The notes under the pieces were generated by a model. The model searched no databases. It saw only the letters and a list, made by a program, of their open reading frames with translations, and had not been told where the DNA came from. Shown here piece by piece: positions 36,841 to 64,000 of a stretch of 64,000 nucleotides of DNA. The stretch spans positions 351,726,001 through 351,790,000 of the forward strand of contig CM097883.1 of NCBI GenBank assembly GCA_044892505.1, written 5' to 3'. Source of the DNA: Schmidtea nova (taxonomy: Eukaryota). A program made the translations under genes and the position numbers. How positions within the stretch are numbered: position 1 is the first letter of the stretch; the number at the start of each line of letters is the position of its first letter.

Positions 36841-38779
36841 ATATACACACATGGGTTAGTGGTTCAGACAGGACACATCCTCCTACTAGAAAACTTCAAA
36901 CGCCTTTTTCGAATTCGATAAACCGGCCCGATCGAGTTTTTAGTGAAACAATAGATAGACAGATTTTTATTGTCTACAAAATGACCGAATTAAAAATTCA
37001 AAATGTTGTGTAGATTGTTGTGCACACGTTTTTTGTCATTAAATTTTTATATATTTACCTAAATAAAGTAATTTTTTTGAATTTTCATTGTAATAAAGTA
37101 TAGATAAAATTTTGTTAAAAAGTCTTGAGTGTAGAATATATTTGTAATTAAAATTTACCGGTCGACTAAATTTTATTATTGTGAAATTTAATTTGAATAA
37201 ATATTTTGACTGTTGGTTTAATTTTATAATTAAAAATTTATTGAATTTATAAAACTATTGGTTAATTTTCTTTTCAATGACTATTTTCAGTGATGAATTA
37301 AATATTTAATGAATTGTAATGAATTTAGTTTTAAATATTGCTATTACTTTTTCACTTAATTTAATGGACACAATGTATTTTAGGAGTTGAATATATTTTA
37401 AATAAAAACTGTGGAATAGAGTTTCAATAACAATTCTGAGTCATGAATTAAATTGTTAATGAACTTTAACTAATTTAAGATTATTTTTATTAAATCACAT
37501 TTTTATGTTACATTGGCTATAAAATGGGTTAATTATAAGAAATGTTAATTATTTCAATAAATATTATATTTTAATAATCATTTTATTAATATATTTACAT
37601 TATTTCTAAAAGCAAACTTATTTAGTGAATCTAATTAGTAATTATTTTAGAATTTTAATTAATATTAGTAATAAAACTTTTAAATTATCGCTTTTCAAGG
37701 AAAACAATTAATTAAAACAGATTGTTTTTAGTAATAAATTTAGGTAATTTTACTTTTTTTCTTATAACTTTAAATTAAATTTTAGATAATAATTTTCGTA
37801 TTTCAGCGAAAACAAATAATTCAAACAAATAAATTTAGTAATTATTTTAAATAATAAATTAATTTTAATTTTTAGTAATAAATTCATTTAAATTTCAGCT
37901 TTAATTTTTGAATAATCGCATTTTAAGGAAAACAATTTATTTAAACAAATAAGTTTAGTAATTTTGTCAGTATTAAATATTTAGTACAATTTGAATGCTG
38001 TAAACTCTTTCTTGATAAATTTATTAAATTGTAGTTATTTTCTTAGATTTAACTTTTTATAATCAAGTTGCATGTGTATTAGTGAAGATAATGAAAAATG
38101 TGTAAATTATCGATAGAGTTTGGTATGAATCAATGCTAAAATATGAAGAATCATTAGTACTTGAAAGAAATTCAAAATATTTTTGTCAATTAATTAGGAT
38201 AATAAACAATTTATTTTTGCTTAATTATCCTTTTGATGAGATTTATTGTTACTTACTACAATGTCTTTAGAAAACAATATAAAGTATTCAATATATTCTG
38301 GTAAAATTATAGTAATGAATATTGATGAATTTGATATATAAATTAATATCAAAGGAGATTTTGATGTATTCTTTGCAGTCTTAACAAATGTCAATTCATT
38401 ATTACATTTTTGTCAGTAAAATATTTTGGAAATTATATTAAAAATTGAAAAAATGTCTACTTTTAAATAATTATTTGACAAAGTTTTCTTTTATTTAGAA
38501 TAATTTATGAAAGAATATTTATAATTTGGTATGAATTGATCATTTAATAAATAAAATTAAGTAAAGATTTTATATTTTAACATAATTAATTTATAATAAC
38601 AATTACATGGTATTTTAGAATTCAGAATATAGTAAAATGCATAGGTTTTACGATACCGACAAGGATAAATAATTAGATTAATGCATAAAGCCTATAAAAA
38701 TGTTTCAGATTTTTTTATGAATATTTGGTAATAATTTAGTCTGAATAAATGAATATTTTAATTAATTTTAAGAGTTTAA

Positions 38780-40593: not shown

Positions 40594-42258
40594 ATACATA
40601 ATTCAAAGGTCAGTATGATAGTCATATAAAGGGTCCAAGGTTCAAATTTTTAAACTATATGATACTTATATCAAATATAAGATAATTGAAAGATGAGTAT
40701 CATACCCGAGATGATGTGTATGTGTCTGAAAAAACTTTCTATCACTATTTTATAAAATTTCATACCCCAATTTAAACAAGGACATTGCAATGCAGATGCA
40801 ACCTAACCAAGACATTCCAATGTCATTGCAACTTAACCAAGACATTGCAATGTCAATGCAACTTAACAAAGAAGCCAAGCCAAATTAATAAAGATATGTA
40901 GCACACAATAACTTATAAAATTTTAAACACCATAATAATAATAACTTCCTTATTTAATAATAATAACACCATAATAATAATAACACCATAATAATAATAA
41001 AAAAAACAGACAAAAATAATAAAAACTTAGAAAAATATATTAATAATAACTTAAAAGACATATAATGTAATACAATCAACAATTGCAGCAATAAAGAGGA
41101 CCATTTTTTTTACTTTCACAAATCTTTTTTCCTTTCTGTTTTTTTTCAATAACTTTTCGATTTTGTTTTTCAATATCGTTTTGATTCTGTTTTCCTTTTT
41201 CATCATCTAAATCTTTAAAAACGTAAAAATCACAATATTAAATTTAATTGATTGCGAAATTTTTTATACAATCGTGAATTGTAAGCCTGATATGGGCCGA
41301 TTGTTCATTCGCAATTTTTCTTTTGATTTTTTTGTTTCTTTTTTTGATTATCTTTATTTCGCAATCATCTAAAATAATCATGTTCCAGAGGCGCATAAAA
41401 TGCATAAGGCTCTTCATCCATCGGCACGATCGGGACATCATCTATTTGTTGTTGGATTGAATCATCATCGAGTTGTTGTTCTGGTGGATCACCTACAAAT
41501 ATATTGGTGTCACTCCCTCTATATTGACGATATGCCAAACTTTTATTTTTATCAATCCAATTACGCTTGTCGTCCTTACAATTCAAGGACATCTAAATAT
41601 TTTTTATACTGAATAACTGGTGGTTCTTACTAGTTATTCTAAACTGGGGGACAGTATATATTTTATTATTTAAATAACAATCAAGATACGACTGATGTGT
41701 TAGTCCAGTATCTTTAATGTTAATCCCCTTAGCTTTCATACTTGCCTCATCACTCATTAAACCATAACACTTAGGGCTTAAGAACATCCACTCTTTGAAC
41801 TTTTCAATGACAGAATCAAGGTTCCTAATCTATTAAGAATGATTTAGGTCATACTTCGAAGTCTCAAGAATATTGTCCCTAACCATCACCAGTAAGAGTA
41901 TATCTAACGAAAGACTTTTAATATCCAAAAAGAAGGAATCAATGTTTCCCAGCAACGATATTAATTTCACAGTTGAAGTCGTCACGCTATTTTTGCAACT
42001 CTTCATACTGCAGCTGGTACATACTAAGTTTGGATAAATCTAGTAATGTTTGACCAATGTAACTAGGTCTATCAAAACACACTGATTCCTTCTTTAACAA
42101 AACAGAAATCAAGTCATTATCTATTTTAGTGGTTGTTGGAACATTAATTAATTATTCAACACAATTATTTTAAAAACAATATTTTAAACAAATTGATTTG
42201 TTTAAATATGATGTGAGAGATAAAAATAAAACTTTTAAATTAAACGCGTGTTTCTTTT

Positions 42259-42984
42259 ATGAATCTTATAAATGGTGTCAGCAACTCCCAAGTTGACCAT
42301 GTTTCGGTCAAAATTCCAGCAATTTTTCAGAACCAGAGTCTGTGGTTCAAACAAGTGGAGGCCAGTTTCAAGATATCAAGAATTACAGAAGAAACTACAA
42401 AATATTTTTATTTAATTTCAAATCTTCCAACAACAATGCTATCAAAATACGAACATCTATTGGACTCAGAAACTGAGCTTCCGTACTCAACTCTGAAAGA
42501 AGCAATCCTAGCAGAATTTGAGCTATCAAGAAAAATATCGATAACAGAATTGATGAGAGAAGAATGCCTTGGAGATCGATCTCCACCAGAAGCACTTCAG
42601 CACATTACGGGACAAATACAAAGAATAGATACAGCCATGGATCCATTCAACAGTCCTATATCTCGGGAATTGTTCATGCGACTATTACCAAGCTTTGTTC
42701 AAGACATCCTATTATCGATGCCAACGACGGACCTTCGAAAATTAGCAGTCACAACAGACAGAATAATGTTATCAAAGCGGCAATCAGTAAAGACAGTTGA
42801 ACACGAAAATTGCAATACTCAAGAGTTAGGAGATAAGACGAGAACAATTAGGGAACTACAGGAAGAAATCAATGTAATACGTCAACAATTAAGAAATAAA
42901 AGCACAAGTAAGTTATGTTTTTATCATAGTAAACATGGACAACGTACTCCGAGAACATCAAGAACATTCCTTATCCTATATTGA
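42259..42984 (+). CDS. gag: Gypsy Gag (truncated at the C-terminal Cys/His motif)
   Basis: VSVKIPAIFQNQSLWFKQVEASF, ELFMRLLP, KLCFYHSKHG; then fused to RT sequence at the catgga junction. Confidence 0.85.
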   Translation: MNLINGVSNSQVDHVSVKIPAIFQNQSLWFKQVEASFKISRITEETTKYFYLISNLPTTMLSKYEHLLDSETELPYSTLKEAILAEFELSRKISITELMREECLGDRSPPEALQHITGQIQRIDTAMDPFNSPISRELFMRLLPSFVQDILLSMPTTDLRKLAVTTDRIMLSKRQSVKTVEHENCNTQELGDKTRTIRELQEEINVIRQQLRNKSTSKLCFYHSKHGQRTPRTSRTFLILY

Positions 42985-44526
42985 TGATGTTTTGATATTC
43001 TCCAAGACTGAAGCAGAGCATAAAGCACACGTGTCGAGTGTGATGACCAGTCTTCAAGCAGCTGGTCTCATAGTCAACCAGAGAAAATGCGAATTCCAAA
43101 CCGAAAAGGTAAATTTTTTGGGTTTCGAATTAACAAAACAGGGAATCAAACCATCGAAGGAACGCACCTTAGCAATTAGCAATTTAAAGAAGCCAACCAA
43201 TAGTCAAGATTTACGACGTTTTATTGGTGGCATCGGCTATTATCACTGGCTAATTCCAAGACTGTCAGATACACTGAGTCCACTGCATGACTTGTTACAA
43301 AAATCGGCCGATAAAAAGGAAGATCTCTTATGGCAAGACTGCCATACACAGGCCTTCATGAATGCAAATAATTCCGTACGCAAAATCAGCAACGTCTCAT
43401 ACCCTAACCCATCCAAGCCATTCCTATTATGCACTGACGCATCGTCTAAAGCAATTGGAGCAAGTCTAAGTCAAATCAACGAAGAAAATAAATCATTTCC
43501 TATTGCCTTCTTTTCCAGGAAATTAAATTTAACCGAACAGAAGTATTCTATTTTCGACAGGGAGTTATTGGCAATATTCTTATCTATAAAACATTTTAAG
43601 CATTTCTTAGACGGTTCTCATTTTACAGTCATGACGGACCACAAACCTTTACTACGAGCTAGACATATGAAAGATCCATCGCCAAGACAATGGGGAATAA
43701 TCGAATACCTTGATCAATTTGATTTCACCATCGAATTCATAAAAGGGGAAGACAATGTAGTTGCCGATCTCTTCTCCAGACAATGCAGTAATCAAGACCT
43801 ACAAGTATCAACTGTGGAGATTAATTTCGTTGAATTCACTAAAGAAAGTTTAAAAGAAGAACAAAGGAAAGATCAGACCTGATCTACACTGAAAAATGCA
43901 AGTCTCCAGTTATGCAGTACTATAGATGACATCCTCATTGACAACTCTACGGGGGAGACCAGAATAGTACTGCCAAAAATATTCCGACATCAATAATTTC
44001 TAAGAATTCATAACATATCTCATCCAGCATCCAAACCAACGATAGAATTGATCAAAGCGACATATGTGTGGCCTCAGATGAAAAGTGACATCAGAGAGTG
44101 GTGTAGACAATGTCAAAGATGTCAAGGTGCAAAGATAACAAGACACACACATGCTCCGTTAGGTACCATAGAAACCAAAGGAAGGTTTATCACAGTTTTG
44201 TTATTAGTGAACCAATATTAACCAATATCGAAGACAATTTGGCATCGATTCAAGAGGAAATCGACTCACAACTAAGTAACAAAAAAACAAGCCAACCAAA
44301 ACAACATAGTTTTGAAAGCAAACTATTTGTTAATTGCAAAAAAGTGTGGCTTCGAGCTGAATTTAGGAAGTCGTTAGAAGATCCGTACACTGGACCATAC
44401 GACGTTATAGAAAGATCCGATGACAATAAAACGTTAAAAATCAAAATTGGAGACCAAATAAAGAATGTTAGCATCGACCGTCTTAAGCCATGGATTGGAG
44501 CTGATGAATTTGCTCCGCAATCTTAA
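42935..44526 (+). pseudogene. pol: Gypsy pol remnant (RT C-half, RNase H, IN HHCC and GPY/F; PR, RT N-half and IN core deleted)
   Basis: YIDDVL, TDASSKAIG, FDRELLA, TDHKPLL, NVVADLFSR; HNISHP...CQRCQ; PYTGPYDV...VSIDRLKP. Confidence 0.88.
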
Positions 44527-45256
44527 GGGGGAGTTGTGTTGGAACATTAATTAATTATTCAACACAATTATTTTAAAAACAATATTTTAAACAAATTGAT
44601 TTGTTTAAATATGATGTGAGAGATAAAAATAAAACTTTTAAATTAAACGCGTGTTTCTTTTATGAATCTTATAGTGGTTTTATGGAAAGTCGGTTTGGAG
44701 TAGTAAGTCATTAACTTCTGTGATGAATTGCATAAACGCAAATTTATACATTTTTTAAGATTTTCAACAGTCTTGCCCTAAAGACTGTTGTTAAGTAATT
44801 TATAAAAGTTAATTAATTTGTCGATGCTGCTCGTAACGCCGTATTTGTATTGATATAATTTTGAAAAATTTTATCTTGTATGAATTTTATTGCTCGATGT
44901 GTTTTTGATATTTTAACATCTAATTTAATAAACAGTTGCAGAAGCTTCCAATGAAGAACGTAGTTTCTCTTTGGATAATGCATAAGTAGCAGCTTCTCAA
45001 CTTTCGAACCTGGTGCACACATCTTTTCAGCGGCAACTAGAAGATCATCCAGTTTGTCGTGAATTGACGTCGGTATTTCTAAATCCAATTCTATGGTATA
45101 ACCATAATGAAGTACATCTAAATCTACCGGTATGCACTCAACAATTATATCATTTAATAAGTGGACATCTGTGACCCATTCAAAGTAACTGCATGGTAAA
45201 GGTTGACTTAAAGCCCAACCATATAAATTATTTCTATCTATGTAAACTTTACATTT

Positions 45257-45521
45257 ACTTTAACTCTCTAATTGAGCTCCTTACCGATATGGAGATGTAT
45301 AACTTTTTCGAGGGCGGTATCCGTGGCGGATTACCTTTTGTAAATAAACACTATGTAAAAACAGGCCCGGATACCGCATTGCTTTACAACGTAAAGCAAT
45401 GCGGTATCCGGGCCTGTTTTTACATAGTGTTTATTTACAAAAGGTAATCCGCCACGGATACCGCCCTCGAAAAAGTTATACATCTCCATATCGGTAAGGA
45501 GCTCAATTGGAGAGTTAAAGT
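45257..45521. repeat. Near-perfect 265-bp palindrome (131-bp arms, 3-nt loop) inside pPolB
   Basis: Arms 45257-45387 / 45391-45521 with one mismatch; loop aac. Confidence 0.95.
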
Positions 45522-48500
45522 TAATAATGAGGAATACCAAGATATACCTTTAATTCCTAAGAAATTTAATGGTTCTAGTCGGTTATAAACAATGACCTTA
45601 GCTCTAAATTGCTGGAAATAATCAGGTAAAAGGAAAAAATCTAGTTTTAAATAAACCATCATGTAATCAAAAATCGAAGTACATGAGGTTTCACGCCAAA
45701 TTCTCTTAACTGTCTCATATTCAGCTGGCTTCACGCCTTTCCAAATAGGAGGTAACTGGCGAATATTTTGTAAAACTTCTAAAGAAGTCGATGTGTCATA
45801 TGGAAAAAATCCCTTTGCTGTTATTATTTTACCCTGAGATTCAGATTCGATCAAAAGTAAAGACGATAAAGTTTTGACAGCATTATATAAAGACTCGCTG
45901 ATAAATTGATAAGAGTCTATGAATATAACAATTAAGGAGTCAATCCTAGCAAAAAGACTAAGGAAGTTCTCGCTTGTCAAAGGAATACAACTAATATTCC
46001 AGGAATGGTATTTGGAAAGGCCAAATTTCAGAATGTGATGTAGATCATAACCCTTTAAATTATGAAAAATGACAGGTAGGGTATGTCTAATTTGCCTTGA
46101 GATATTGCAAGCTTTGCAAGCTGCGCCAAGAAATAGACCGATAAAATGTTCATTGTCCCTAACTGGATAAACTAAAGGTTTATTGCACAAATAACATGAT
46201 GCGCTCTTTTCAAAATCTAATTTTTGAGCGTCGGTAATTATAATTTTCTTCTGATAATTTTTATAAAAAAACGGCGTCACTTATGTTTACTAATCAATTC
46301 AATTTCATTAAGAAATTGATCGACGCAATCTAAACCGAAGAAAAATTTATAAATTTTTACACCGGTAAAATCATTAATAAGAAGCAAACCAGCAGAAATA
46401 GGCAAGTGACGTTGAAAGTAACAAGCCTCAAAGTCAGCGTAAATAACAAAGGGAGGAGTGACGGTTTTCTTCCAATCAGTAAATTCGAGGTATTTGTTTT
46501 TGGACATTGTGTATAAGGTAGTACTCAGCTGATTTTTATCACAAAGACCCCTATGTCTATTAAAAGACTCATCATTCCTAAAACCGTTTAAACACCTAGG
46601 ACACCACTGGCTACAAATCCTAACAGGAGTGATTGAACTATTCCTACAATTAAGGAATCTATTTAGATCTGTGATTGCGCCATGGTGCTAATTATTCTTA
46701 TTTTCAATCAATAATTAATTTATAGGTATTCATCCTACTACCTTACTTCGGTAAATTATATCAATAAAAGCATCTTCATCAGAAATGTCTATCTGCTTTT
46801 AGTCATAAGTAAGCACATTAATACTATAACCGGGATTTTGATGTTCAAATTTACTTATATTTGACAGTTTCATCGGCATATTATTGGGGTAAAATTAAGT
46901 TGAGAAAGATCGTAGGAAGTAGGACGATTTCTATATTGCCTATTTACACTTTCATAGTTAATAATTGATAGGAAACTGTACAAGAAACAATAATGGTCAT
47001 TATTAACTACATTTATAAGAAAGCTTAAACTTTTTAATGATTTTGGGGTTTCAATAAAACTATTGCCACTTAACCGACTTATTTCGGAAAATTTAGTGAG
47101 AACGAAGCTTATGTACTCGATTTTATTGATAGTCCAATTACTACCTTTTTCATTTAATTGAAGTGTTGAGGTTCCGAGAATCTCAACTTGATGTTTCTTA
47201 AATAAATAAAAAAATAAGACTGATTCTTTTCAAAGACTATTTATTTATAACAATTACAAATTTGATAAAAATAAACAATAACCTAAAGGATAATAATTTT
47301 TAGTTATTTTGTATTTATATGTATGTGTGTAAGTGCTTGCAGTTTCCTGAGCTCGAATGTAAAGATTTTGTACGCTCGATTTTAATTTACAAATCGTTTA
47401 CCGAATTTGTAATTCTTCTTAACTGTGTAAGATTTTAATGGTGGTTTGACTGAAAAATCAGTCAGTTTATATACTAAATTTTAAGGCACTTAATCTGTCA
47501 ATAATGATTGTTATTTTGCCTCTTGAGTTGATTGAAATTATTTTGAAAATAGAGTGGTTTTCAAAACAGAATTGTTTTCAAAATTATTTTTTAACTTTGG
47601 GATATTATTTCATTTTTCTTACTTTTGTAGGTCATAAATATAATTTCTTTAAACAAACAGTAATTTATTTATTTTTAATTTATTAAAACAATCTGTATTA
47701 TTTATTTATTTTATTATTATTATTATAATTTATTGAATTAAAATATTAAAATATAAATGAAAATATAATCCATATTCAAAAAATTAATTTACATAAAATA
47801 TTTTCAAAACAAAATATTCTTTCAAAATTATATCAAATTTTGTCCATCACCATAAAAAATGTCAATAAAAGTTTACATGATCACAAATGATAAATTGTCA
47901 AAAGATAAAAAAGATTGTTATATACATCACAAAACTGAATGAATTTGTCACACAAATAGGATTTTCAAAAGATAAAATAGATTGAATAAAAAAAAGATAT
48001 AATAAATTTGTCACATAATAAAATTGTCAAGAGATAGAATAGATTGTTATTTGAATCACGAGGCTGAATGAGTTTGTGCCAAAATAGGATTGTCTAAAGA
48101 TAAAATAGATTATTGTCTGAATTCCATCTTTTCATCGGGAGGGATCTTGTTAGATGATGTGTCTATGTGTATGTTTAGCCTATATCTATTTGTTCCTATG
48201 CTATAGTCTTCATCTAACTCAAATTTATTTACAAAGAAATTTAATTTATTTAACAAAATGTCCGGCACTGAGACCGTTTTTAATTCTAAATTTGTGACAT
48301 CGAGTTTAATTATAACATAGTTGTCGTTCAAGTCCATATTAACTTCGACTAACCCATGTCCAATTTGAATATTTAATAAATTATTTATTTGGGTGTTTTC
48401 CTGATTACTGATGATGATAATTTCTTTATCATCACTGATGGTAATTATATCGTTAATAATATCTTCCTCATCACTGATGTCGATAATTTGTATTTAAGTA

Positions 48501-48778
48501 GGAACTGATTCCATATTATTTATATTAGTGTTATGTGTGTTATTGATGTTACATAAATTATTGTTGTTATTACATAGAGATGTTATATCTCTAAATGAAT
48601 TAACTAATTTATATAAATAAATTACCACGATTCGGAAATAATAATTCTAATAATAAATCAATAAATTACAATATTCAAAAATCTCTATTTTACAACACAA
48701 TATTCAAACAATATTCTAATAATTATAATATTAAACGAATTTGTAATATTATTAATTCACATATAACATTCCCCCGTC

Positions 48779-51700
48779 TTATTCGGCTCTCAACTCGAAA
48801 TCGTCGTATAATCTCGGCTTCACATTTCTATTGTGTCTTTTCGGGTATCTTCCTGTGGTCTCTTTATTCTCTTCCGTTGACGTTGCTTCGTTAACCTCTT
48901 CCAATCTCTCCGATTCCTTTGTTCTTGACCATATACTTGTTCCCCAACTGTCCGTCTCTATCTTTGCTATTTCTGATCTTTCTGGGATAATCTTAATCTG
49001 GTTAAAATTACGCTGTATTATCTTCCCATCAGCCTCGCTTCTTAATTTAAAAGTCCAATCATTTACTTTCTCCAGTATTTCATATGGGCCGCAGTATTTC
49101 TCCCCAAATCCTTGTTTCTGAACTACTTTTACTAATGCCGAATCTCCTATTTTGACGTCTTTATTCCATCTATTTCGATTGTAAATCTTTTCGTTATATA
49201 CTCTCACTTTATCAGTTCTCTTTTTTACTTCCTCTTCTATGTTCGTTAACTCTGTTCTCAGTTTTCTCATGAATTCTCCGTAGTCTTGTGGTCCTATTAT
49301 GTCGCTTGTTTCTTCTCTTACTTTTGGTGTTCTGCCGAACATTAATTCTATCGGTTTATATCCAGTACTTTTATGGACTGTGTTCCTTACTCCATATTCT
49401 ACCGTGTGTACTGTTGAATCCCATTCCTTCGTCTTCCTGTCGAACATGGTCGCTGCCATCATACTTTTTGCTGTTTGGAACATTCTTTCGATTAAGCCGT
49501 CAGATTGTGGGTAGTACGGTGATGTACAGGTTTTCTTTGTTCCTATCAGACTGCACAAACCCTTAAACATATTTGACTCAAAATTCTTTCCCTGATCTGA
49601 GTGAATCCTTTCTGGTATACCGAATTTTGTGATCCATTCTTCCCATATTGCTCTAGCCACTGCTTCTGTCGTAATTTCTGGGAGTGGTATTAGACATGGA
49701 TATTTTGTGAAGTAGTCAATTAATCCCAGAATGTATCTATTTCCTTTTCTTGTAATTGGAAAAGGTCCGGTAATGTCTATTCCCAAAATTTCTAAAGGTC
49801 TACTGCTTATAAAACTCTGTAGTGGTGCTCTAACTCTTCCGTTTATATACTTGTTGTGTTGACAGGCTATACATCGGTTTACTCTATCTATAACGTTCTC
49901 GTTGATATTTGGCCAATAGTATCTTTCTTTGGCTGCTCTCGTAGTTCTTTCAATGCCAACATGTCCCAATTCCCGATGTAACTCGTCAATATATCTATTT
50001 CTTTCTTCTTCTGGTAGTATTTTCCTATGTCCTTCTGCTTTCTTAATCTTAAGATTTCCTTCACTGACATACATAAGCTCCGCTTTTCTCCATAGTTCTA
50101 AGTTTTTCCGGTTTTGTTCTTTTCTCCCTTGCTGTATCCAATCGATTATTTGCCTAACTTCTGAATCCGTCTTCGTATTTATCTGACATATAATTCTTTC
50201 TGACTTGTTCTCTTCTGTAGAAGTGTTTTCTTCCTCGTAAACTTTTACATTTCGTTTCTTTCTTGGGTCCGCGTGTTTCAGTCGGCATTGTTCGCATGGT
50301 GTAATTCTTGACAATGCATCCGCATTGCAATGGTCTTTCCCTTTTCTAAATTCCACTTTCATGTCATATATTTCTAGCTCTGCTTTCCATACACAATATT
50401 GAGAGGTGTTTGGGCTACTCCAATCTAATAACCATTTAAGTGCTTGATGATCTGTTCTTACTGTGAACTTTTTACCTACTAAATAATACTTGTATTTTAA
50501 TACAAATGTATAAATTGCCAAAAGTTCCTTGCGTGTGATACAGTATTTCCTCTGCGTTTTCGTCATAGTCTTCGATCCATACGCAATAACTCTCTCCTTC
50601 CCATCTTGGATTTGAGACAGGACGGCCCCTATTGAATCGTTAGACGCGTCTGTGTCTAAAACGTAGTATCCATCTGTAGTTGGTAATGCTAATATTGGCG
50701 GTGATAGTAAAGCCTGTCTTAATCTCTCGAACGATCCTTGTCTTTCCTCCGTCCATTCAAATTTGTTTTCTGTTCGAAGCATTTCGTTTAAAGGTTCTGT
50801 CGTCTTAGCGTAGCCTTTAATGAAGTTTCTGTAATATCCCGTCATCCCTAAAAATGTCCTTAACTCTTTCTGACACATTGGCTTCTTATATTCTCTTATC
50901 GCTTTGGTTTTGTCTGGGTCCGTCTGTACTCCTTCTTCGTTTATAATGTGTCCCAAATATCTTACCTCGTTTTTTAGCAAGTGGCATTTCTCCGGTGATA
51001 ATTTTAGTCCCGCTTCTCTCATCTTTTGTAGTACTCTATCTAATATTTCGTTGTGCTCTTCAATTGTTTTTCCGAATACCAGAATATCGTCCAAATATAT
51101 CACACAGTTAGTCCAGTTCTCTCCTCTTAAGACTACGTTCATTATTCTTTGAAATGTTGCTTGTGCGGCACACAATCCGAATGGCATTCTTGTGAACTCG
51201 TATTGGCCAAATCTCGTGCTGAATGCTGTTTTCCTTATATCCTCTTCTGCGATTGGAATTTGATAGTATCCACTGGACATATCTAATGTGGAAAAGAATT
51301 TCGCGTTTCCGATCGTATCAAAGACTTCGTTTGCTGATGGTATTGGAAATATTGCTCTTTCTGTTTTTGCATTTAAAGCTCTGTAGTCGATGCACATTCT
51401 CATATCCCCATTCTTTTTTTTTTGTTACCACTATGGGAAAGTTCCATGGTGAATTGCTTTCTCTAATAATTCCCGCTTCTTCCAATTCTGTAATGTATCT
51501 TCTCACATCTTCCTCCAATCCCCTTGGTATCCTTCTATGTTTGAATGCTATCGGTGTTGTTTTCCCCGTTTCTATAGTGTGTTGTCCCACATTTGTCTTT
51601 CCAATATCCATTTTGTAACTACTGAATACATCTTTGTTCCGCCATAAAATTTGTGAAATCTTCTGTTTTTCTGTTATTGTTAATCTATCGTCTAGTTTGT

Positions 51701-52148
51701 TTATCAACCCTTTCACAATTTTGTCTATACTTCTCTTTTCTTTGTTTTGGTCGATTGTTGACAATTTCATCAATGTGTTATTTTTTCCCTCTTTGTCCGT
51801 CCATTCTTCCACTTCTCCCAGTGTTGTTCCTGTATGTAGACTTTTCACTCCTCCTTCCTGCATATTAATTCGGACCCAAATCAATCCCTCGGAACATGTT
51901 GCTAGTCCATCTGCTACCAGTATACCTCTTTCCTCCATCTTGTTCTTGTTTCCTGTAAATAAACAATTAGTTACGTCTTCCTTTATCCTTTCGTTCTCCT
52001 TATCTACTATCATCCCTTTGATCCAATACTCTCCCTCTCCTTTCAATGTCACATTTTCTGCTACCACTACTTTTCTCGTTTCTTCTTCCGTCCCTTTAAC
52101 TATTCTTCCCACTCCTGGACGCCTGGGAGTGGTCTTTAACAGTTTAAA
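48779..52148 (-). CDS. pol: Gypsy Pol (linker, RT, RNase H, integrase); one extra A in an A10 run at ~51414-51423 splits it
   Basis: SPWNFP, DYRALN, MPFGL, YLDD, DTDASN, TDHQAL, ADALSR, HRELGH..CIACQ, GIDITGP, HSDQGKNFES, PQSDGLIER, GPY. Confidence 0.92.
52089..52148 (-). promoter_or_regulatory. Predicted -1 ribosomal frameshift signal (U UUA AAC + H-type pseudoknot)
   Basis: Heptamer 52148-52142 is in phase with ORF1; 9-nt spacer; stem1 CCACUCC/GGAGUGG; stem2 CGUCC/GGACG; next ORF is in the -1 frame. Confidence 0.75.
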
Positions 52149-53773
52149 GACGATGGTATCGATGTCTTGGATAGAAATGGAATTTGAATACCCTTTACCT
52201 CGATACAGTCTTCTGCCGGTTTCATTATTACTCCCAGTTCTTTCATGCATCTGAGTCCGATATACGCATGTGGGAATACCCCGTTTATTATTTCGAATTT
52301 GTGTTTGGTCGTCCTTGGACCCAAACTCAGTGACAATACTAATTGTCCTCGGCTTTTTCCTTTACTTCCATCTGCGTACGCTACTCTAACGTTTGAATCC
52401 CTGACTTCTATTGTCGAATCTCGTTGTATTATTTTCTCTGCCAGTTCCTCACTAATGACATTCAGATCTGCTCCCGTATCGAATAGTGCTTTAACTTCTT
52501 CTCCTTGGATTTTGCAACAAATGATTGGCTTGTTGGTTGCCCTTTCCGATCGTCTTTGCGATATTACTGTTGTGGCTTTTTTTATATATTTTTCCTTTGG
52601 TTTGTCGCCATTACCTCCGATAAACTGTGCCCACTTCTCTTCCATTGTTAGCTTACTTTTCTTTGTCTTTTTTACTTTTTGTGTAATCGCTTTCATAATT
52701 CGTTCTGATGGGTCGTCTTCTTCGTATTCGCTATCTGAACTTGTCCCTTGTACGGATACTTCTTCTAATTGTCGTACTCTTCTATAATCGTCCCTCTTGT
52801 TTGGGCATTCTCTACTTATATGACCCTTTCTATTACAATTAAAACATGTTACCTTTTCTCGATACTCTCGGCAATTGCTCGATATATGTCCTGTTTTCTT
52901 GCATCGGAAGCATCTTTCGTTCTTCTTTTCTTCGCAGAAACGTGCAATATGACCGGTTTTGCCGCAATTGTAACATTCCACTTGTTGTCCATTGTGGAAT
53001 TCTTTTCTACTTCTATCTTGGTTATTCGGTTCTTTTAAACTTTTTATAATTTCCTGAAGTCTCTTAATCTCTTCTCTTAATTCTTGTAACTCCAATGTGG
53101 CATTTTTATCTACCCGCATTTGCCTAGCATTGTTGTTTCCTTTCGCTTTATTAATTCCTTTCCCGTCTCTCCATGCATTATAGCTCTCTTCTCGTAGTTG
53201 TGATAATCTGTATTCTGGAATTATTTCTTTCTGGTCATCTTCTTCCTTTATTAGTTCGACAGCTTCTTCTATGGTTTTGGGCCGCAATATTTTCAATGTC
53301 TTTCTCATGATTTCACTTTTTAAACCTTCTCTAAAGATCATTAATTCTATTCTGTTTCGATCTTCTTTTGTGTCTTTCGTCGTTCTTTTTACCCGTCTAC
53401 TGAAATCTACTATCGTCTCTCCTTCGTCCTGTTTGGTCGATAGAAAAATTCTAACCTTCTTGGCTCTTGACTCCTTTATTGGGAACATTTCTGTTAATGT
53501 TTTTGTGTACCACTCTACTGAGTTGTTTTCTTCTCCATACGTACTTTTTGATTCCACCTCGAATAAGATTTCTGGATCAAAATATCTTCTTAATAATCGG
53601 ACTTTGTAAGCCTCTTCCATCTCAAACATCGCCAAAAAGGATGTTATATTCTCGAGATGTGTCCTCACATCCCTTTTACACTTCCTTGTGTATAGATATA
53701 GGGATCCCTCTATCTCTTGTGCCAATAAATTTTTGACAAAAGAATTGTCAAACGTAACTGCTCGTGACGCCAT
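52136..53773 (-). CDS. gag: Gypsy Gag-protease polyprotein (3 CCHC knuckles, aspartic protease)
   Basis: CYNCGKTGHIARFC, CFRCKKTGHISSNC, CFNCNRKGHISREC; ALFDTGADLNVI; 545-aa open frame. Confidence 0.92.
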   Translation of the reverse strand: MASRAVTFDNSFVKNLLAQEIEGSLYLYTRKCKRDVRTHLENITSFLAMFEMEEAYKVRLLRRYFDPEILFEVESKSTYGEENNSVEWYTKTLTEMFPIKESRAKKVRIFLSTKQDEGETIVDFSRRVKRTTKDTKEDRNRIELMIFREGLKSEIMRKTLKILRPKTIEEAVELIKEEDDQKEIIPEYRLSQLREESYNAWRDGKGINKAKGNNNARQMRVDKNATLELQELREEIKRLQEIIKSLKEPNNQDRSRKEFHNGQQVECYNCGKTGHIARFCEEKKNERCFRCKKTGHISSNCREYREKVTCFNCNRKGHISRECPNKRDDYRRVRQLEEVSVQGTSSDSEYEEDDPSERIMKAITQKVKKTKKSKLTMEEKWAQFIGGNGDKPKEKYIKKATTVISQRRSERATNKPIICCKIQGEEVKALFDTGADLNVISEELAEKIIQRDSTIEVRDSNVRVAYADGSKGKSRGQLVLSLSLGPRTTKHKFEIINGVFPHAYIGLRCMKELGVIMKPAEDCIEVKGIQIPFLSKTSIPSSLNC

Positions 53774-54929
53774 GTTATATCTCTAAATGAATTAACTAAT
53801 TTATATAAATAAATTACCACGATTCGGAAAAAATAATTCTAATAATAAATCAATAAATTACAATATTCAAAAATCTCTATTTTACAACACAATATTCAAA
53901 CAATATTCTAATAATTATAATATTAAACGAATTTGTAATATTATTAATTCACATATAACAAGAGACATTATTATTTAAGGATTCATTATTAATTTTATTG
54001 TTATTATTTAAGGATACATTATTTATTTGATTGTTTTCAACAAAATTATTGTGTTCAGTATTGTTGATGTAATTTGGATATAAACTATTAAATAGTGATT
54101 TTTTAAAGGTTTATATTGGGTCAGATGGGTCTTGTGGCTATAAAAAATTCGTTATAAGCTATATTTTTATTAATTTTACAAGTAGGGCAGAGGAGGTGAG
54201 TGACACAATTTTATTTATAGGAATAGTAGTTTTCCATAATGACATGGCAGTCATTAAGTAAACTACTATTACAAAAAAATTTTATATATCGAGCCTGAAT
54301 AAATTAAATAATTTAATAAACAAATACATGATATAATAAAATAAATATATATCATTTTAAAATAATTAAATTTATCTTCATAAAATATGACAAATAATTT
54401 TTGAATCACAATTTACATAATAATAATAAATGTTCATAAAGATTTCCATTATAATTTATTAATAAAGATTTTCCTAAAACTTTTCATAATAAATATACCA
54501 TTTATAATTCGCAATAAAGAATTTGATAAAATTATTCGTTATAAATATTCATAAAATCATTCGGTATAAATATTCCTAAAATTTTCCATGTTAATCTATT
54601 CTCAAAGTAATTTCGTCATAAAACTTTTATTAATAATACATATTCCTAAAAGTTTACATAAAACCATAAAAAGAAATAGGTTATCAACATAATCTTTATC
54701 ATATATTTACAACATAGATTTTTTCGTCATAAAATAATATATTTTCATTAAAATATTTTCTTAAATTATTTTCATCATAGAATATATTTTTAATAACTAA
54801 AATACTTTCCTCGCAATATTAGTTATAAAAATAATATTTTTTAATATCCATAAACCTTTTATGAACTGTTTATCTTTAACATAATATGTAATGGTTCAAC
54901 AAACAATTACTTATTAGTATATTCGGAAA

Positions 54930-56090
54930 GTAACAAATCAATTTATTGTGCTCCTTGTCGATTGTTAGGAGGTGGTGGATAGGCCCTGGCAACAACAGGT
55001 TATTCTGATTAGAAAAATGTAACAGAATGTTTATCTCAGCACGAAAATACATCACAACACAGACAGTTAGAAACAGTTCTAAAGCAGCGATTATTAGGAG
55101 ACTCTGCGTCAAATGTGAATGAACTATTAAATTCAGAAACTCTAAAGGAAAAAAATACCATCTTGTACCTGTGTTAACATAGCGCCAACTGCGACGTCGG
55201 ACGCATCTGTGGTTAGACTTAAGGGCAGAGAATACTTTGGATAAGCCAAAGTCTGAATTGATTCAAGTGCTTTTTTAGCTTCGATGAACGCAGCGTCAGA
55301 TTTCTCTGTCTAATTTATAATAGATCGCTTTGATCCCGAATGAGCGAAGTCAAAGGAGCAAGAATATCAGATATCCTAAGTATGAACCTGTGGCAATAAT
55401 TGACTACGCCTATAAAGCTGCGAAGCTGCGTGACAGTTTTTTGTTTTAGAAAAATTTCTGATGGAATTTAAACTTTCAGTTTGTGGATCTATTCCATCAG
55501 CGGATAAGGTGTGTCCCAGAAATTTTACACTTGATTGAAAGAATTGACATTTGGAACGATTTATCTTGAGTTGATGTCGCTCTAAGATTTTAACGAGTTT
55601 ATGTGTTTCGGCATCAAGCGATGCGACTAGGATGTCGTCGACGTAGGCTGCTACATAATCTAGTCCGGATAATATGTGATCGATGTGTCGCTGGAATGTT
55701 TGTGCAGCGTTCCGCAAACCAAAAGGAATTCGCAGGATTTTGAAGAGACCTATAGAAGTGATGACAACTGTTTTTGCACATCGGATAGAGTGACAGGAAT
55801 TAAGTGGTATGTCTTCGCCAGATCGATTGTAGAGAATATTTCGTTACCTATGAATCTGGCTAACGAATCCTTTATAAGAGGCGTTGTATATGATTCGTGG
55901 TGTGTGGTGGTATTTAAACGACGGTAGTCGCCACATATCTTGAAAGAACCGTCTTTCTTAGGGACGAAATGGATCGGAGAGGCCCAATGCGAAGAAGATC
56001 TTTGGATCACTTCTACTTGTAATATTCTGTTTTCAGAAATGTCAATTTTTCTCCGGAGATCGGGCGCAATCTCTCTCTGAGAGGTGGTGA
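54930..56090 (-). mobile_element. Decayed Gypsy RT/RNase H remnant
   Basis: WASPIHFVPKKDG...CGDYRRLN, FGLRNAAQTFQR, YVDDIL, TTDASDVAVGA. Confidence 0.88.
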
Positions 56091-56397
56091 ATTCAGAGTA
56101 AGGATTTGATGATAGAATAAAATAAATTTAACAACAAGAAAAGTATATTTTTTAAACTTCAGTATATTTTAAACAAACGTATTTTTCTCAACAGTTTTTA
56201 ATAAACTATTTCTCTAAAAGTTTTATTTTCTTTTCTTCTTTATTTATATAACGAAATATAATACAACTAATATAATATAAATATTACATTTAGTAATATA
56301 TAAATTGTATCACCACAATACATTTTGGGCAAAGGTAATCTTGTCCTTCATACTATTCCAATCGATCATAAATACCAGCCCAGAATGGTAAATCTGT

Positions 56398-57410: not shown

Positions 57411-58701
57411 TCAACTTAAGTGAAATATAGTAGTTTTTAATTTATTATTTTTCATTATAATAATATCTATTTTTAAGATAAATTGATGTCCGTAGTTCAC
57501 TAGACTGTTCCACCGTGTCTTTGTATCTAAAATTAAAACCTTATCTTCCTGTTGACAGCTTTCTCTAATATACATTTGCAAAATACTGTCATTCTTTGTT
57601 GGCGAATTTCTAAAGATTTTAACGATTTTGCGTATTTTAGTCCGAATAGGTTTAGCAGCGTTACATATGTCTAAGTCTAACCCATTAGGGATTCCTTCAT
57701 CCAAATCACTTTCAGCAGTATCGTTAAGTTCCAATTCATCTTCGCTTCCAAGATTATTTGAGTCCGATCTATATGCTTCTATTTCATCGTTTTGAGTATT
57801 CTTGGGTACTCTTTGGTTTGAGTATTTATTTTTTTATAAAGTATATCTATTACTGCTAATTGTATGTCATGAGCAAAACATAGCTTTTGGTAGTTGGATA
57901 CTAATGAACCTACCTTCAACATCACTCTAGCACCATCCGTAGTCATGCAAACGATGTTTTTTTCTAAATTAATATTGAAATCCTGGAGTTTAGTTTTTAC
58001 TATTATGTTACATTTTTCCGCAGGCATGCTTCCATGAATCCTTACCATCCCTAAACTACAATATTTCGTTTCAGTTATCTTAGGTTCAACAGCGTAATGA
58101 ATATTAATATTAATGTAACGACGGTTTCGTTTTGAAGTCCACTCATCAAATGTAATGCTTACTCCTCCTACTTGTAGTATGGATTTAAGTTCCTTAATCA
58201 AGTTATATTTTATTTTCTCGTAATAACCAACTACAATACTGCGTATTGTGTGAGGTGACTTAGGAATATTTTCGAAACCTCTTGCTGTGAGGGATTTTCT
58301 TAGATCATATGATGAGCAAAATATTCTAAAAGGAAGTCCATCTACTGATGTCAAACGCGCAAGAACAGCAGGTATTGTGTTGTCAATTTTAATCTTTGCC
58401 GTTAGATATGATGTAATTTTCCTTTTGGTATCGCTAATATCTACTCTTTTTAACTGATTTTCCTCGTCTGTTTGTTGATCTAAAATTAATGTTCTCTTCT
58501 GACAATCAATTTTATGTATTTTATTCAAGTGCGTATATGCAGTCCTTTGGTAGACCCCCCAGCTATTTTTAGTATACTCGGACACAACTTACATCTAGCG
58601 GTTTTAGGAGTACTTCCTTGTTCTCGCAAAAAATGTTTCTAAATCGCGGATTCGCTTTCTTATTCCCACTCAATGTATTTTGTAGCTGATTTCGATGCCA
58701 T
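57411..58701 (-). pseudogene. hAT-family transposase pseudogene (BED finger + catalytic region, C-terminus lost)
   Basis: AI*KHFLRE...ARCKLC...HLNKIH; ITFDEWTS; TTDGARVM; CFAHDIQLAV; TRWNS. Confidence 0.88.
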
Positions 58702-59739: not shown

Positions 59740-60307
59740 AGAAAGGTCGGTGAAAAATTGTTACGATAATAACCGACGTGATCGTAAGGTCGGTGAGAGC
59801 ATAGTGAAAATATTGAATAATTGGAAAATTGTTACGAGATTACCCGACGTGATAGAAAGGTCGGTGAAAAATTGTTACGATAATAACCGACGTGATCTAA
59901 AGGTCGGTGAAGGAGTGAATCAAAGAAAAGAAGAGATAATTTGCTATAGAAAATTGAATTTGATAAGTAAAGAAAACGATATTAAGTGACTTAATTGAAA
60001 AGTCAGTGAGAAAAGTGTTGAAAAGTAAAATTGAATAATTGTAAAAAGAGAAAATAAAATTTGAAAAGTAAAGAAAACGAGATTAATTGTTGAAGAAAAT
60101 AAAAGTGAAAATAATTGTATCAGTTGAAATAAAAGAGTAAAAAGCTTGAACAGAAAAGAGAGAATCGATAAAAATCCAATTGCCAATAATCAAGTCAAAA
60201 TTAAAACAAAAGGTAAATTTAAAAATTGTAATACTTTAAAATTTAGACGAGAAAAAGTTGTACAAAAGAAATCTTATAATCTTCGAAATAAGAAACAAGT
60301 GGAAAAT

Positions 60308-62446
60308 ATGGCTAGTAATTCAAATAATAATGATCAAATACCCATGTCTACTACTCCCACAAACAATGGTAGTGATTTTGCAAGCTGTCAGAAATTGCCA
60401 GTAGAGCAATACGGAGGAGACCCAATTGATTTTGTTGATTTCATGGCAGATTACTATATGTACGCGACAGCATACGGATGGAGCCAATCAATTATGGTAC
60501 AAAGGTTACCGGTATATTTGAAAGGTGCAGCACGAGAAGCTTGGCAACAGATCGACAAAAGACTTATCGCAAATGATTGGACAAAGCTAAAAGATGCATT
60601 GGCAGCCAAGTTAATTGGTGGCGATATCAAAAGAATAATGCGCCAAAAATTTTACAACCGAGTACAAAAGTCAAATGAATCGGTAAGTGAGTTTGCTTAT
60701 CATTTAACAACTCTTGCAGAAAAAGCCTTTGAAGCGAAACCAGAACAACCTGATGTGACGAAACAAGTGAAAGAATTACTTCAAGATCAATTTCTGTCAG
60801 GAGTAAAAAGAGAGATCAAAAAAGCCCTGTGTTATGTAGATTTCAACAATTTCGATGAATTGATTAAAAAGGCCATGAAGATTGAATTGAATCTCAAAAC
60901 CACACAACAGACAGCCGAATCCTTTGCAATTGTAAATGAAACGAGAGATGAATCAGTAACTCCAGTTAGAGAGACTCTTTTGCAAAAATCAACAAGTCCA
61001 TCACCAAAGTTTAGAGTGAAATTCGAGCCAAGAAAGTCGTCAAACAGCCCAAATGAAGAAAGAGAAAGGCCAATTCAATGTAGTTATTGTAAAAGATTGG
61101 GACATCAAGTAAATCAATGTTGGTTTAAAAACAGCGCTCGAAGAAGCCCAAGTCCTGTTCAGTGTGATAATTGCCAACGAAAAGGGCACAGTAATAGTCA
61201 ATGTTGGTTTAAAAATAATTCGCAACGGAGTCCAAGAAAGATGTGGCCAGATTGGTTGAAAGACAATGTCGAGAAAACCTTCAAGAGAAGGGGCAACATT
61301 GATCAAAGAGCTAGTGATAATATGCAGTGCTATAATTGTGGAAGGAAAGGCCATACTTCACGAAATTGCTTTGCAAGATCGAGATCTCCGTCAACATCAC
61401 CATCACCACAGAGAGATAGAGTAAATCTCCAAGGACAAATTCAATGCCACTCATGCAGAGGAAATGGACACATGGCTAGATCATGCCCAAAGAATAATGA
61501 AAAATTTCAAAGACCTATATTAAAGAAAATCAGATTTCAAAATGATAAATCAAAATTTGATAATGTGGCTTTTGTACAACCCGATGATGCTAACGAAAGA
61601 ATTGAAAAAGAGATAAAGCAAATGGGTAAACGATTGGATAAATTAATGTGTAAATTTGAATCGGACGAAGAAACTGATAACCATATGATGTATGAAACGC
61701 AATCAGAAGGGTCAGAGACAGATATAATGAAGGAAGTAGTAAATGATGAATTAGAAACCGAAAAAATAAAAATGATTTTGTCGAGAACAAAAATTTTAAT
61801 GGAGTCAAAAGTAAAAGAGACGTCAAAAATAATGACAATGCTAAAGAAATTGAGTCAAATGCCGATGAGTATACAAAATTTAAAAAGTGTAATTGAAATT
61901 TGTGCTGAATATCACAATGAGAATTCAAAAGATAAAACTGAAACTGAGAAAATAATGAAAATATTTGGAAAATTGTTCAGAGAGAAAACATGGTTAGATT
62001 TTATTGTTATTGATGTTGTTGATGAAAGTAATAATGATGTGATGTGCATTCGTTGTGAAATAGGAGAGTGCGTAAAGGAATTTAAAAAGAGATTAGAGGA
62101 AAATAGTGGAAAATGGATAAAGGAAGTAAAATTTAAAAATAGATGTTTAAATGACGAGGAAATATTAATAGATTGTGGTATTACACCTGAAAATAAAAAC
62201 AGAGTACAGATAGTATTTATGATTAGAAATAATGAAATAATAAAAGATTATTCACAGAAAATTTGTAGGGAATTAAAAGATATTTTGTGTAAAGGGGATG
62301 CAAATGAAATTATTAGAAAATTAAAATTGATAGAAGAAATTGAAATTGAGAGAGATATTAAATTAGATATTATAGATGCAATAAGGCCACACATGTATGA
62401 AAAATCTAAATATAAAGAAAATTTAAGAAATTTAGTACGACGATAA
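60308..62446 (+). CDS. gag: Retrotransposon Gag with 4 CCHC knuckles and a C-terminal extension containing a ubiquitin-like domain
   Basis: YGGDPIDF..F...Y...ATAYGW...LPVYLKGAAREAW; QKSNESVSEFAYHL; four CX2CX4HX4C; open from 60146, first ATG at 60308. Confidence 0.88.
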   Translation: MASNSNNNDQIPMSTTPTNNGSDFASCQKLPVEQYGGDPIDFVDFMADYYMYATAYGWSQSIMVQRLPVYLKGAAREAWQQIDKRLIANDWTKLKDALAAKLIGGDIKRIMRQKFYNRVQKSNESVSEFAYHLTTLAEKAFEAKPEQPDVTKQVKELLQDQFLSGVKREIKKALCYVDFNNFDELIKKAMKIELNLKTTQQTAESFAIVNETRDESVTPVRETLLQKSTSPSPKFRVKFEPRKSSNSPNEERERPIQCSYCKRLGHQVNQCWFKNSARRSPSPVQCDNCQRKGHSNSQCWFKNNSQRSPRKMWPDWLKDNVEKTFKRRGNIDQRASDNMQCYNCGRKGHTSRNCFARSRSPSTSPSPQRDRVNLQGQIQCHSCRGNGHMARSCPKNNEKFQRPILKKIRFQNDKSKFDNVAFVQPDDANERIEKEIKQMGKRLDKLMCKFESDEETDNHMMYETQSEGSETDIMKEVVNDELETEKIKMILSRTKILMESKVKETSKIMTMLKKLSQMPMSIQNLKSVIEICAEYHNENSKDKTETEKIMKIFGKLFREKTWLDFIVIDVVDESNNDVMCIRCEIGECVKEFKKRLEENSGKWIKEVKFKNRCLNDEEILIDCGITPENKNRVQIVFMIRNNEIIKDYSQKICRELKDILCKGDANEIIRKLKLIEEIEIERDIKLDIIDAIRPHMYEKSKYKENLRNLVRR

Positions 62447-64000
62447 GCAAAGAACTTAGAAAGACTACAATTGAATTGAATCCGTTTACAATAGCATTAG
62501 ATTACGAAGATTATGGTAAAACTGAATATATAGTAGAGCATTGGTGCACAAAAGTTCGGAAATTAAGAAAAAGAGCTGCTGAAAGAATAGGAAAAGATGG
62601 AATTATTATATTTATGTTTAAAAGAGAAAAATTAGATGATGATGAATATTTATTTGATTTTGGATTTGTTCCACAAGAGTTAGATGAAAATGGATATTTA
62701 CGTTTCGATAGTAGAAATGGATATTTGATAAATTGTGTATCGGTGATTAAGGAACAGAAATTTGAATTAATAGACAAATCTGATGGATCAAATACAGACA
62801 GAGAAAATGATGATGAAAATGAGGTTAAAGAAGATAAAGAGATAAACGAAATGGTAAATGATAACGAGGAAACCAAGCAGAATAATAAAGATGAGTATAA
62901 AGTAACAAAAATAGAGGAATTTGAGGAACTTAAAGGCGAAATGAATAATGAAAGTAATATTAAGAAGCCTAGAACCTTATATGAAATAAAGAAAGGTTTA
63001 GTGCGATTGGAACAAGAAGTAGATAAAACCAAAGCATTATTAAAAAGCTTGACTAAAGCAGTATACCCAATGTGTGAAATTGAGATAGATGGAAAATATG
63101 AATTGGGAGGAATAGTAAATGAAGTGAGAAACAGACTCCCTAGCATCATGCGAAGGTTTGGTAAAAATGAAAAATTTTGTGACAAAGATGTAATCGAGAA
63201 ATTAACTAAAAATGGAATTACTACAGAAGTAACATTAATGAGCTTAACTTATGTAATTTTAGAAATTGGTGCTCATAAGATCATGAAATCAGATGAGTTA
63301 GAAAATTTAATAGATACTGCTGCTCGAAATATAAACGAATACTTAATGAGCTGGGTTAAAAAGATTGGAGGTTGGGACAAGTTGATGAAAATGTTTATAA
63401 TAAATGAAAACGAAAGTAATGAAGAAAGTTTACCTCAACAATCGCTAAATGTCAGAGTTAGTCCAGAAAAGAGGAAGACAATACTGTTTCCTTGGGCAAT
63501 CTTTATGATAATTATTTTGTGTGCTGGAATCACACAGGTAACGAGTATGACAACGTATGACTGTTCAAAAACAGAAATGGGGAAAATTTATTCAGTTGTA
63601 GATATGTCAGAGTGTTCAGACGCATATCCAAGAAAATTAAAGATAGAAAATGATGTGAAATATCATGTATATCAAGAATCTGATTTACGACGAACAACGG
63701 TAAGAGAATGTATAGTTAAGCGCACTTCCTTTATATTTTATTGTGGCAAGTGGAGCCATACTTCAATGATAAAAATGTATACAATCCTACGGCCAGTAGA
63801 GGTAATGCCGGAAAATTGCCTCGCTGCTTTTCAAACAGGAGAATTAAAAATAAATTCGGAAATTAAATTAAAAGCAAAGCGAAATCATAGAATTAGAGAA
63901 ACAGTGGTCGTAAAAGGAGTAATGAAACAAGATGGAGATTGTGAAGGAGAACCATACAAAGTAGATGGGAAGATAATCAAACAGTCTGTAGTAATAGAGG
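62416..64000 (+). CDS. ORF2 (runs off the window; absent from the ORF track): Ubl - acidic/coiled-coil - Bcl-2-like - hydrophobic signal/anchor - chuvirus-like glycoprotein
   Basis: Manual translation is stop-free from 62416 to 64000, in the -1 frame relative to gag; WVKKIGGWDKL; FPWAIFMIIILCAGI; YDCS...ECIVKRTSFIFYCGKWSHTS...CLAAFQTGEL...GDCEGEPY. Confidence 0.85.

Follow-up and report, generated by a model that had tools for sequence, protein, structure and literature searches.

A predicted -1 frameshift between protease and reverse transcriptase in a Ty3/Gypsy retrotransposon of Schmidtea nova

Frameshifting retroelements usually ration their protease (PR) along with reverse transcriptase (RT), as surplus protease can process Gag too early. 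The known exception, to our knowledge, is the alpharetroviruses. In RSV/ASLV the protease is part of Gag and a single -1 shift, the '0/-1' arrangement, precedes RT (excerpts of PMC1224870 and PMC12789967); one passage of PMC5009743 instead groups RSV with the viruses whose protease is in pol. The beta- and deltaretroviruses MMTV and HTLV have -1 shifts at pro-pol and also at gag-pro (PMC5009743). Because they shift twice, their protease is sub-stoichiometric.

Within Ty3/Gypsy, the plant Tat-lineage elements Ogre and Retand carry GAG-PROT as ORF1 and RT-RH-INT as ORF2 (PMC6317226 and its Additional file 5), divided either by a spacer that contains an intron or by one stop codon. In the lineage table of that paper, overlapping PROT/RT frames prevail in no lineage. 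A 2003 survey by Gao and colleagues found pol in the -1 frame in 28/51 animal elements, and its summary in the excerpted PMC5009743 leaves the location of protease unstated. Most frameshifting Gypsy elements had been said, in an earlier note on the present locus, to shift before the protease. Where the literature excerpts give its place, protease belongs to pol and follows the break. Rotifer and basidiomycete elements, with Juno, Vesta and TelKA as named cases (PMC5408684, in part), and one vertebrate metavirus (PMC11011659, in part) are described as having a dUTPase between PR and RT. The full-text literature yielded no Gypsy -1 frameshift between protease and RT, and neither did the available portions of PMC5006619, PMC4402516, PMC6238403, PMC8556966, PMC5443660 and PMC1142308; Repbase, GyDB and most subscription papers lie outside this coverage, and an earlier mention is quite possible.

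The window analyzed here, a stretch of 64,000 nucleotides from Schmidtea nova, is AT-rich (19-38% GC) and crowded with mobile-element debris. A candidate slip site sits within a minus-strand LTR retrotransposon of 5,380 bp (53960-48581), which has the following terminal features, in window coordinates:

53773..53960, minus strand: 5' LTR, 188 bp, TG...CA, differing from the 3' LTR by one mismatch
48581..48768, minus strand: 3' LTR, 188 bp
53965-53961 and 48580-48576: 5-bp target site duplication (TSD)
53758..53772, minus strand: primer-binding site (PBS), immediately 3' of the 5' LTR
48782-48769, minus strand: purine-rich tract (PPT), just ahead of the 3' LTR
53773-53771, minus strand: first ATG of ORF1, formed by the last A of the LTR and PBS bases 1-2

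The element is young, and all the hallmarks of a Ty3/Gypsy LTR element (LTRs with TG...CA, TSD, PBS and PPT) are present. Its domain order is Gag-PR-RT-RH-IN and the closest solved sequence to its Pol is Ty3 Gag-Pol (E 9e-100); thus, we assigned it to Ty3/Gypsy (Metaviridae). No env ORF was found between integrase and the 3' LTR, no second copy of the element was found within the 64-kb window, and a scan of genome contigs for the DNA of relatives returned 20 pattern matches and zero relatives. Since the first ATG of ORF1 is built from the last LTR base and the PBS, the Gag N-terminus would be encoded by the PBS. Among 98 relatives of 430-700 aa, the predicted starts, which are gene-caller choices, read MAS in 29/98 and MAT in 7/98.

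The coding part of the element is laid out as follows:

52136..53773, minus strand: ORF1, 545 aa, Gag continuing in frame into a complete aspartic protease
52975-52805, minus strand: three CCHC knuckles of Gag, within ORF1
52480, minus strand: protease DTG motif in ORF1 (Pfam Asp_protease_2, E 8e-9)
52142..52148, minus strand: slippery heptamer U_UUA_AAC (TTTAAAC), in the X_XXY_YYZ phase of ORF1
52138-52136, minus strand: ORF1 stop
51426..52148, minus strand: -1 frame from the slip site, with a dUTPase-like domain, a linker and the N-terminal part of RT
51789..52088, minus strand: first domain of the -1 frame, with a dUTPase fold in a structural model
51414..51423, minus strand: A10 run that breaks pol, RT resuming in another frame
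48779..51424, minus strand: rest of pol, with RT, RNase H and integrase (zinc finger, core and a weak SH3-like tail)

According to the earlier note, Gag and a complete protease occupy one ORF that ends at TTTAAAC, with Pol in the -1 frame. We found ORF1, the DTG motif and the in-phase heptamer as described, and the downstream ORF is indeed -1 relative to ORF1, which it overlaps by 223 nt. The heptamer falls at codon 546/549 of ORF1 (counting from the upstream stop), about 2-3 codons ahead of the stop; five further in-frame heptamers occur in ORF1, with no comparable structure behind any of them. In the -1 frame the earliest Met is at codon 46 (52013), and homology already begins upstream of it. 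For the part of the -1 frame that precedes the slip site, a coding role was rejected, as it has no similarity to any protein compared. The A10 run, considered as a second programmed shift, was ruled out because relatives are continuous there: P0008-P0011 are uninterrupted at this position, and the break reads as a lesion private to this copy or an assembly error.

The relatives are known as predicted proteins, with Gag-PR and Pol as separate protein records. Close relatives do not have the one continuous ORF that the earlier note had named, for sister copies, as evidence against the shift. The close Gag-PR relatives (36-59% identity) finish, in 4/4 cases, at an S-L-N followed by 0-13 residues; this tripeptide is the reading of xxU_UUA_AAC and is invariant in the window and these four proteins. 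The close Pol relatives P0008-P0011 (40-63% identity), four of the five Pol matches, begin past the junction and lack a protease. The fifth match, P0012 (29% identity), is a fused PR-spacer-RT-RH-IN. The predicted N-termini of P0010 and P0011 are identical over nine residues and diverge thereafter, which would be expected if this stretch is an RNA structure just past their slip site. A protease search of a library of 50%-level representatives returned 312 proteins with E<=0.001. Every one of the best 150 of these 312 is at most 820 aa long and ends within 50 aa of the last conserved protease motif (median 19). A profile search among proteins of 518-2,000 aa gave eight matches of 554-623 aa, none of which (0/8) has RT; by the tool's own warning this search is weak. 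This layout, in which the predicted protein stops after protease, prevails throughout a large Gypsy group.

The heptamers and pairing of relatives were deduced by back-translation, since these relatives are seen as proteins. The 150 listed proteins and P0002 make 151 rows, and removal of four misaligned or truncated ones (P0123, P0138, P0147 and P0157) left 147 tails. A strict XXX_AAA_C fits 87/147 tails (controls: 12% upstream, 18% shuffled); with GGA and GGU admitted as XXX the fit rises to 130/147 (controls: 18% upstream, 34% shuffled). Tails that finish exactly at the Asn number 43/135. With six proteins added from the profile search, a candidate site is present in 149/153 tails and absent from 4/153; the types among the 149 are G-N (47), E-N (37), L-N (24), K-N (19), G-K (12), V-N (7) and P-N (3). 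The preceding residue can provide the required base in 40/40 G-N tails (P 1.5e-4) and 22/22 L-N tails (P 0.005); the same test was not significant for E-N (42/48), K-N (17/17, P 0.05), V-N and G-K. The slip-site passages of PMC5009743 count U_UUA_AAC, G_GGA_AAC and A_AAA_AAC with the shiftiest sites and list G_GA as a tolerated exception. On a quick protease tree of 145 columns, heptamer type changes about 60 times, in clusters, and well-supported branches require 2-8 changes for each type. If slippage is under selection, exchange between shifty heptamers at a single position would be expected.

Downstream of the heptamer, this copy offers the following structure, all on the minus strand:

52141-52133, minus strand: spacer from slip site to stem 1, 9 nt
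52132-52126 with 52115-52109, minus strand: stem 1, 7 Watson-Crick pairs (pair probabilities 0.97-1.0)
between the 5' strands of stem 1 and stem 2, minus strand: loop 1, 4 nt
52121-52117 with 52093-52089, minus strand: stem 2, 5 Watson-Crick pairs possible
52116, minus strand: junction A, a single unpaired base between the stems
minus strand: loop 3, 15 nt
52144-52138 with 52104-52098 (within 52098..52144), minus strand: alternative lower stem of a long hairpin (pair probabilities 0.78-1.0)

The earlier note had described an H-type pseudoknot after 9 nt. Stem 1, a possible stem 2 and the junction A are all present in this copy, and stem 2 is unproven outside it. The pseudoknot scan gave the site a score of -25.7, which sums helix stacking without loop terms and is not a true free energy. 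Only five offsets among the element's 4,914 positions reached this score, all representing the same structure, and 0/1,000 dinucleotide shuffles matched it. Among the window's 1,250 canonical heptamers, counted over both strands, the site ranked first, with a spacer range of 5-9 nt that was chosen when the observed 9-nt spacer was already known. The spacer here is longer than the 5-8 nt between heptamer and structure stated in PMC12789967. Rfam gave no family at a meaningful E-value for this region; its match of 52129-52089 to a pseudoknot family (E 2.6) is at chance level.

Where the ORF1 of relatives extends past the site, it encodes the stimulator region, so that pairing could be tested by covariation at the protein level after back-translation. 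We scored 143 six-pair registers against permuted pairings. The top 7/143 all lie on the stem-1 diagonal of the window (mean z 6.4, n=47). With P0001 left out and a site rule blind to structure, that diagonal reached a mean z of 7.1 (n=41), and it kept its top rank when each cluster was represented by a single tail (20, 13 and 8 clusters) and under within-group permutations. These z values are inflated by relatedness and are not probabilities; in five control regions within the protease, the best diagonal had mean z values of 2.9-6.0 and was never the stem-1 diagonal. Because the controls reach 6.0, the argument for stem 1 is that a pre-specified diagonal came first (about 1/29), not the z itself. 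A variant that takes the best register per tail was weaker (173/10,000). Stem 1 is well supported, and in many relatives it is longer than in the window, running from +8:+35 to +17:+26. At the position of the window's stem 2, loop bases are conserved (G+20 in 37/41, G+22 in 33/41 and a pyrimidine at +23 in 39/41). A search for stem-2 partners in the relatives' tails (n=10) was not significant, 257/1,000 shuffles being as good. The junction base in 41 long tails is A in 15, G in 15, U in 6 and C in 5. The MMTV-like unpaired A of the earlier note therefore describes this copy and does not extend to the clade, where it is found in 15/41 relatives and stem 1 is often longer.

It is possible, though unlikely in our judgment, that frameshifting is real and that its stimulator is the stem-1 hairpin or a long two-part hairpin of the HIV-1 kind, the stem-2 match being incidental. 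ViennaRNA, which cannot represent pseudoknots, folds the free RNA into one long hairpin (z -2.8) that retains stem 1 at its top. In this fold 52089..52093, the 3' strand of stem 2, is paired at more than 0.85 with 52152-52146, which lies partly upstream of the slip site and partly within it. Together with the non-significant partner test and the longer stem 1 of many relatives, this favors a hairpin. A ribosome on the slip site, however, abolishes the competing pairing: when the part it covers was removed from the prediction, the 3' strand of stem 2 became mostly unpaired. Moreover, bases +20, +22 and +23 beat most stem bases in conservation, which a plain loop need not do, and five perfect Watson-Crick pairs are on offer for stem 2. 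We therefore consider a pseudoknot the fairly likely form of the stimulator in preference to a hairpin, and a full pseudoknot in relatives is probable.

Far less probable is that Pol is made by splicing, as in plant Ogre, or is initiated separately on a subgenomic RNA, and that the heptamer is a coincidence. Ogre does remove an intron to join GAG-PROT with RT (PMC6317226, in excerpt), and gene callers assign the Pol relatives starts of their own. Against this, 52260-51901 contains no GTRAG donor or polypyrimidine acceptor by strict patterns, the ORFs overlap by the 223 nt noted above, the conserved domain begins ahead of the first Met, and the tails of 130/147 relatives are compatible with a heptamer. 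Finally, we can hardly credit that an element with a single ORF has here been broken by chance, or by misassembly, in one dead copy, for although the same copy has a second frame break in a homopolymer and the distant P0012 is fused, 150/150 listed relatives end at the same place, the 0/8 profile matches with RT agree (weakly), and relatives are continuous across the A10 break and not across the PR/Pol junction. The programmed -1 frameshift after protease claimed by the earlier note is thus supported by the window sequence and by about 150 relatives, and we regard it as very probable in this element.

The -1 frame opens with the dUTPase-like domain. We modeled it from a six-sequence alignment (pLDDT 70-83 across residues 21-110). 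The best fold matches had Z 9.0 (rmsd 3.9, 104 residues aligned) and Z 8.9 (rmsd 2.9, 90 aligned). All of the 21 highest-ranking rows were dUTPases, dCTP deaminases or herpesviral proteins that we take to be dUTPase-derived, and trimeric dUTPases were matched in both fold searches. Foldseek gave no row at E 0.001 with the model, and Pfam gave no match to the domain. With the motif-3 Asp of dUTPases as our assumed catalytic reference, inspection by eye found it absent in the window, and relatives show a nearby Asp at no consistent column. The motif appears degenerate, and the domain is probably catalytically inactive. An Atlas search with this spacer domain returned eukaryotic rows, with Arthropoda, Nematoda and Mollusca among the few recorded members, at a score just under the recognition threshold; Atlas rows for the protease were generic, and neither set of rows gives the host range of the clade. 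Look-alike unnamed eukaryotic clusters were also seen in Atlas, and the domain may be common but overlooked in animal Gypsy elements. P0012, which is fused with the same spacer, suggests that a cassette may have been inserted between protease and the dUTPase-like domain.

Several other features lie in the window:

60128-64000, plus strand: second retroelement-like gag (CCHC, Retrotrans_gag)
62416 to the window end, plus strand: -1 ORF of this second element, 528 aa, no protease or RT
57779-58588, minus strand: hAT-like transposase fragment (DUF659)
55376-56127, minus strand: decayed RT fragment
44813-48493, minus strand: broken region of protein-primed type B DNA polymerase (DNA_pol_B_2), presumably Polinton-like, which the retrotransposon adjoins
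45253-45525: 135-bp perfect inverted repeat inside the DNA_pol_B_2 region
42134-44673, plus strand: short, internally deleted Gypsy-like element flanked by identical 137-bp repeats, with gag DUF7041 and RT/RNase H pieces
34862-37112: 144-bp tandem array with an inverted end
15437-16309 and 30816-31691, plus strand: two intronless paralogous ORFs for rhodopsin-type GPCRs, 88% identical over 300 nt
about 29190-30700: N runs between repeated blocks, which are assembly gaps

The second gag ends with two in-phase A_AAU_UUA heptamers (62419 and 62428), just past the opening of the -1 frame (stop 62413). Its 528-aa -1 ORF encodes an extended acidic region, a hydrophobic segment and a fusion glycoprotein of the Monjiviricetes type (E 4e-22); a W..GGW stretch in it, which has no Pfam support, is one that we take to recall the Bcl-2 BH2 motif. 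No stable structure was found in the 66 nt after these heptamers. A gag-to-env frameshift at 62419/62428 is possible.

For the retrotransposon at 53960-48581, we propose that translation would start at the LTR/PBS junction and yield Gag and protease as a single protein. Near the ORF1 stop, the ribosome would be placed on U_UUA_AAC with a stable RNA structure at its mRNA entry channel. The majority of ribosomes would terminate there and release Gag-PR, and a minority would undergo tandem tRNA slippage by -1 and produce Gag-PR-(dUTPase-like)-RT-RH-IN. From the ORF layout, protease would be about equimolar with capsid and, as with Rous sarcoma virus, rationing would affect RT/IN alone. The stimulator would comprise stem 1 and most likely a full H-type pseudoknot. 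In this copy the pseudoknot would not form until the ribosome unwinds the lower stem of the long hairpin, in which both the slip site and the 3' strand of stem 2 are paired. In the clade, the heptamer would have been swapped repeatedly among shifty types, with its position and the register of stem 1 constant. Slippage and its rate, stem 2, the refolding step and the protein ratios are what we infer from sequence.

The mechanism is classical, and the novelty is its position in Gypsy. Like alpharetroviruses, the element would have a protease at the level of Gag and a single -1 shift before RT, at a heptamer with a predicted pseudoknot. Unlike them, it has no env, its Ty3-type Pol scores far above retroviral Pol, its -1 frame opens with a dUTPase fold, and its clade varies the heptamer. 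It works like an alpharetrovirus but is not one, and the likeness would be due to convergence. With MMTV and HTLV, as far as the excerpts describe them, it would share a -1 shift between protease and RT, and this copy resembles the MMTV gag-pro pseudoknot in its short stems and unpaired junction A; however, the element has no gag/pro shift, and the junction A is kept in only 15/41 relatives. Ogre and Retand, in the excerpted account, likewise split GAG-PROT from RT-RH-INT, by an intron or stop and not by overlapping frames. Overlapping frames or a -1 heptamer shift are shared with Drosophila elements, plant Tcn1/Selgy, PEG10, RTL3 and the rotifer elements Juno and Vesta, in the parts of the literature available.

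As one joint and tentative proposal, which we hold with less than even confidence, a large undescribed Gypsy group (at least 150 clusters at the 50% level, probably invertebrate) might have independently reached the alpharetroviral 0/-1 arrangement. A frameshift cassette would have entered an ancestor with one ORF, between its protease and an inactive dUTPase domain, and no fewer than six heptamer types would have been exchanged since, with one conserved pseudoknot behind them. The signal of this copy, still within the same proposal, would be a co-translational switch, in which the slip site and stem 2 stay concealed in a long hairpin that the ribosome has to open.

Annotation pipelines would call such elements broken or split them into unnamed proteins. 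The clade is a natural library in which frameshift rules could be tested, for it combines different heptamers, the non-canonical G_GAA_AAC and G_GUA_AAC among them, with a structure at a constant position. A second independent and diverse group with protease at the level of Gag would also provide a comparative system for how protease is restrained.
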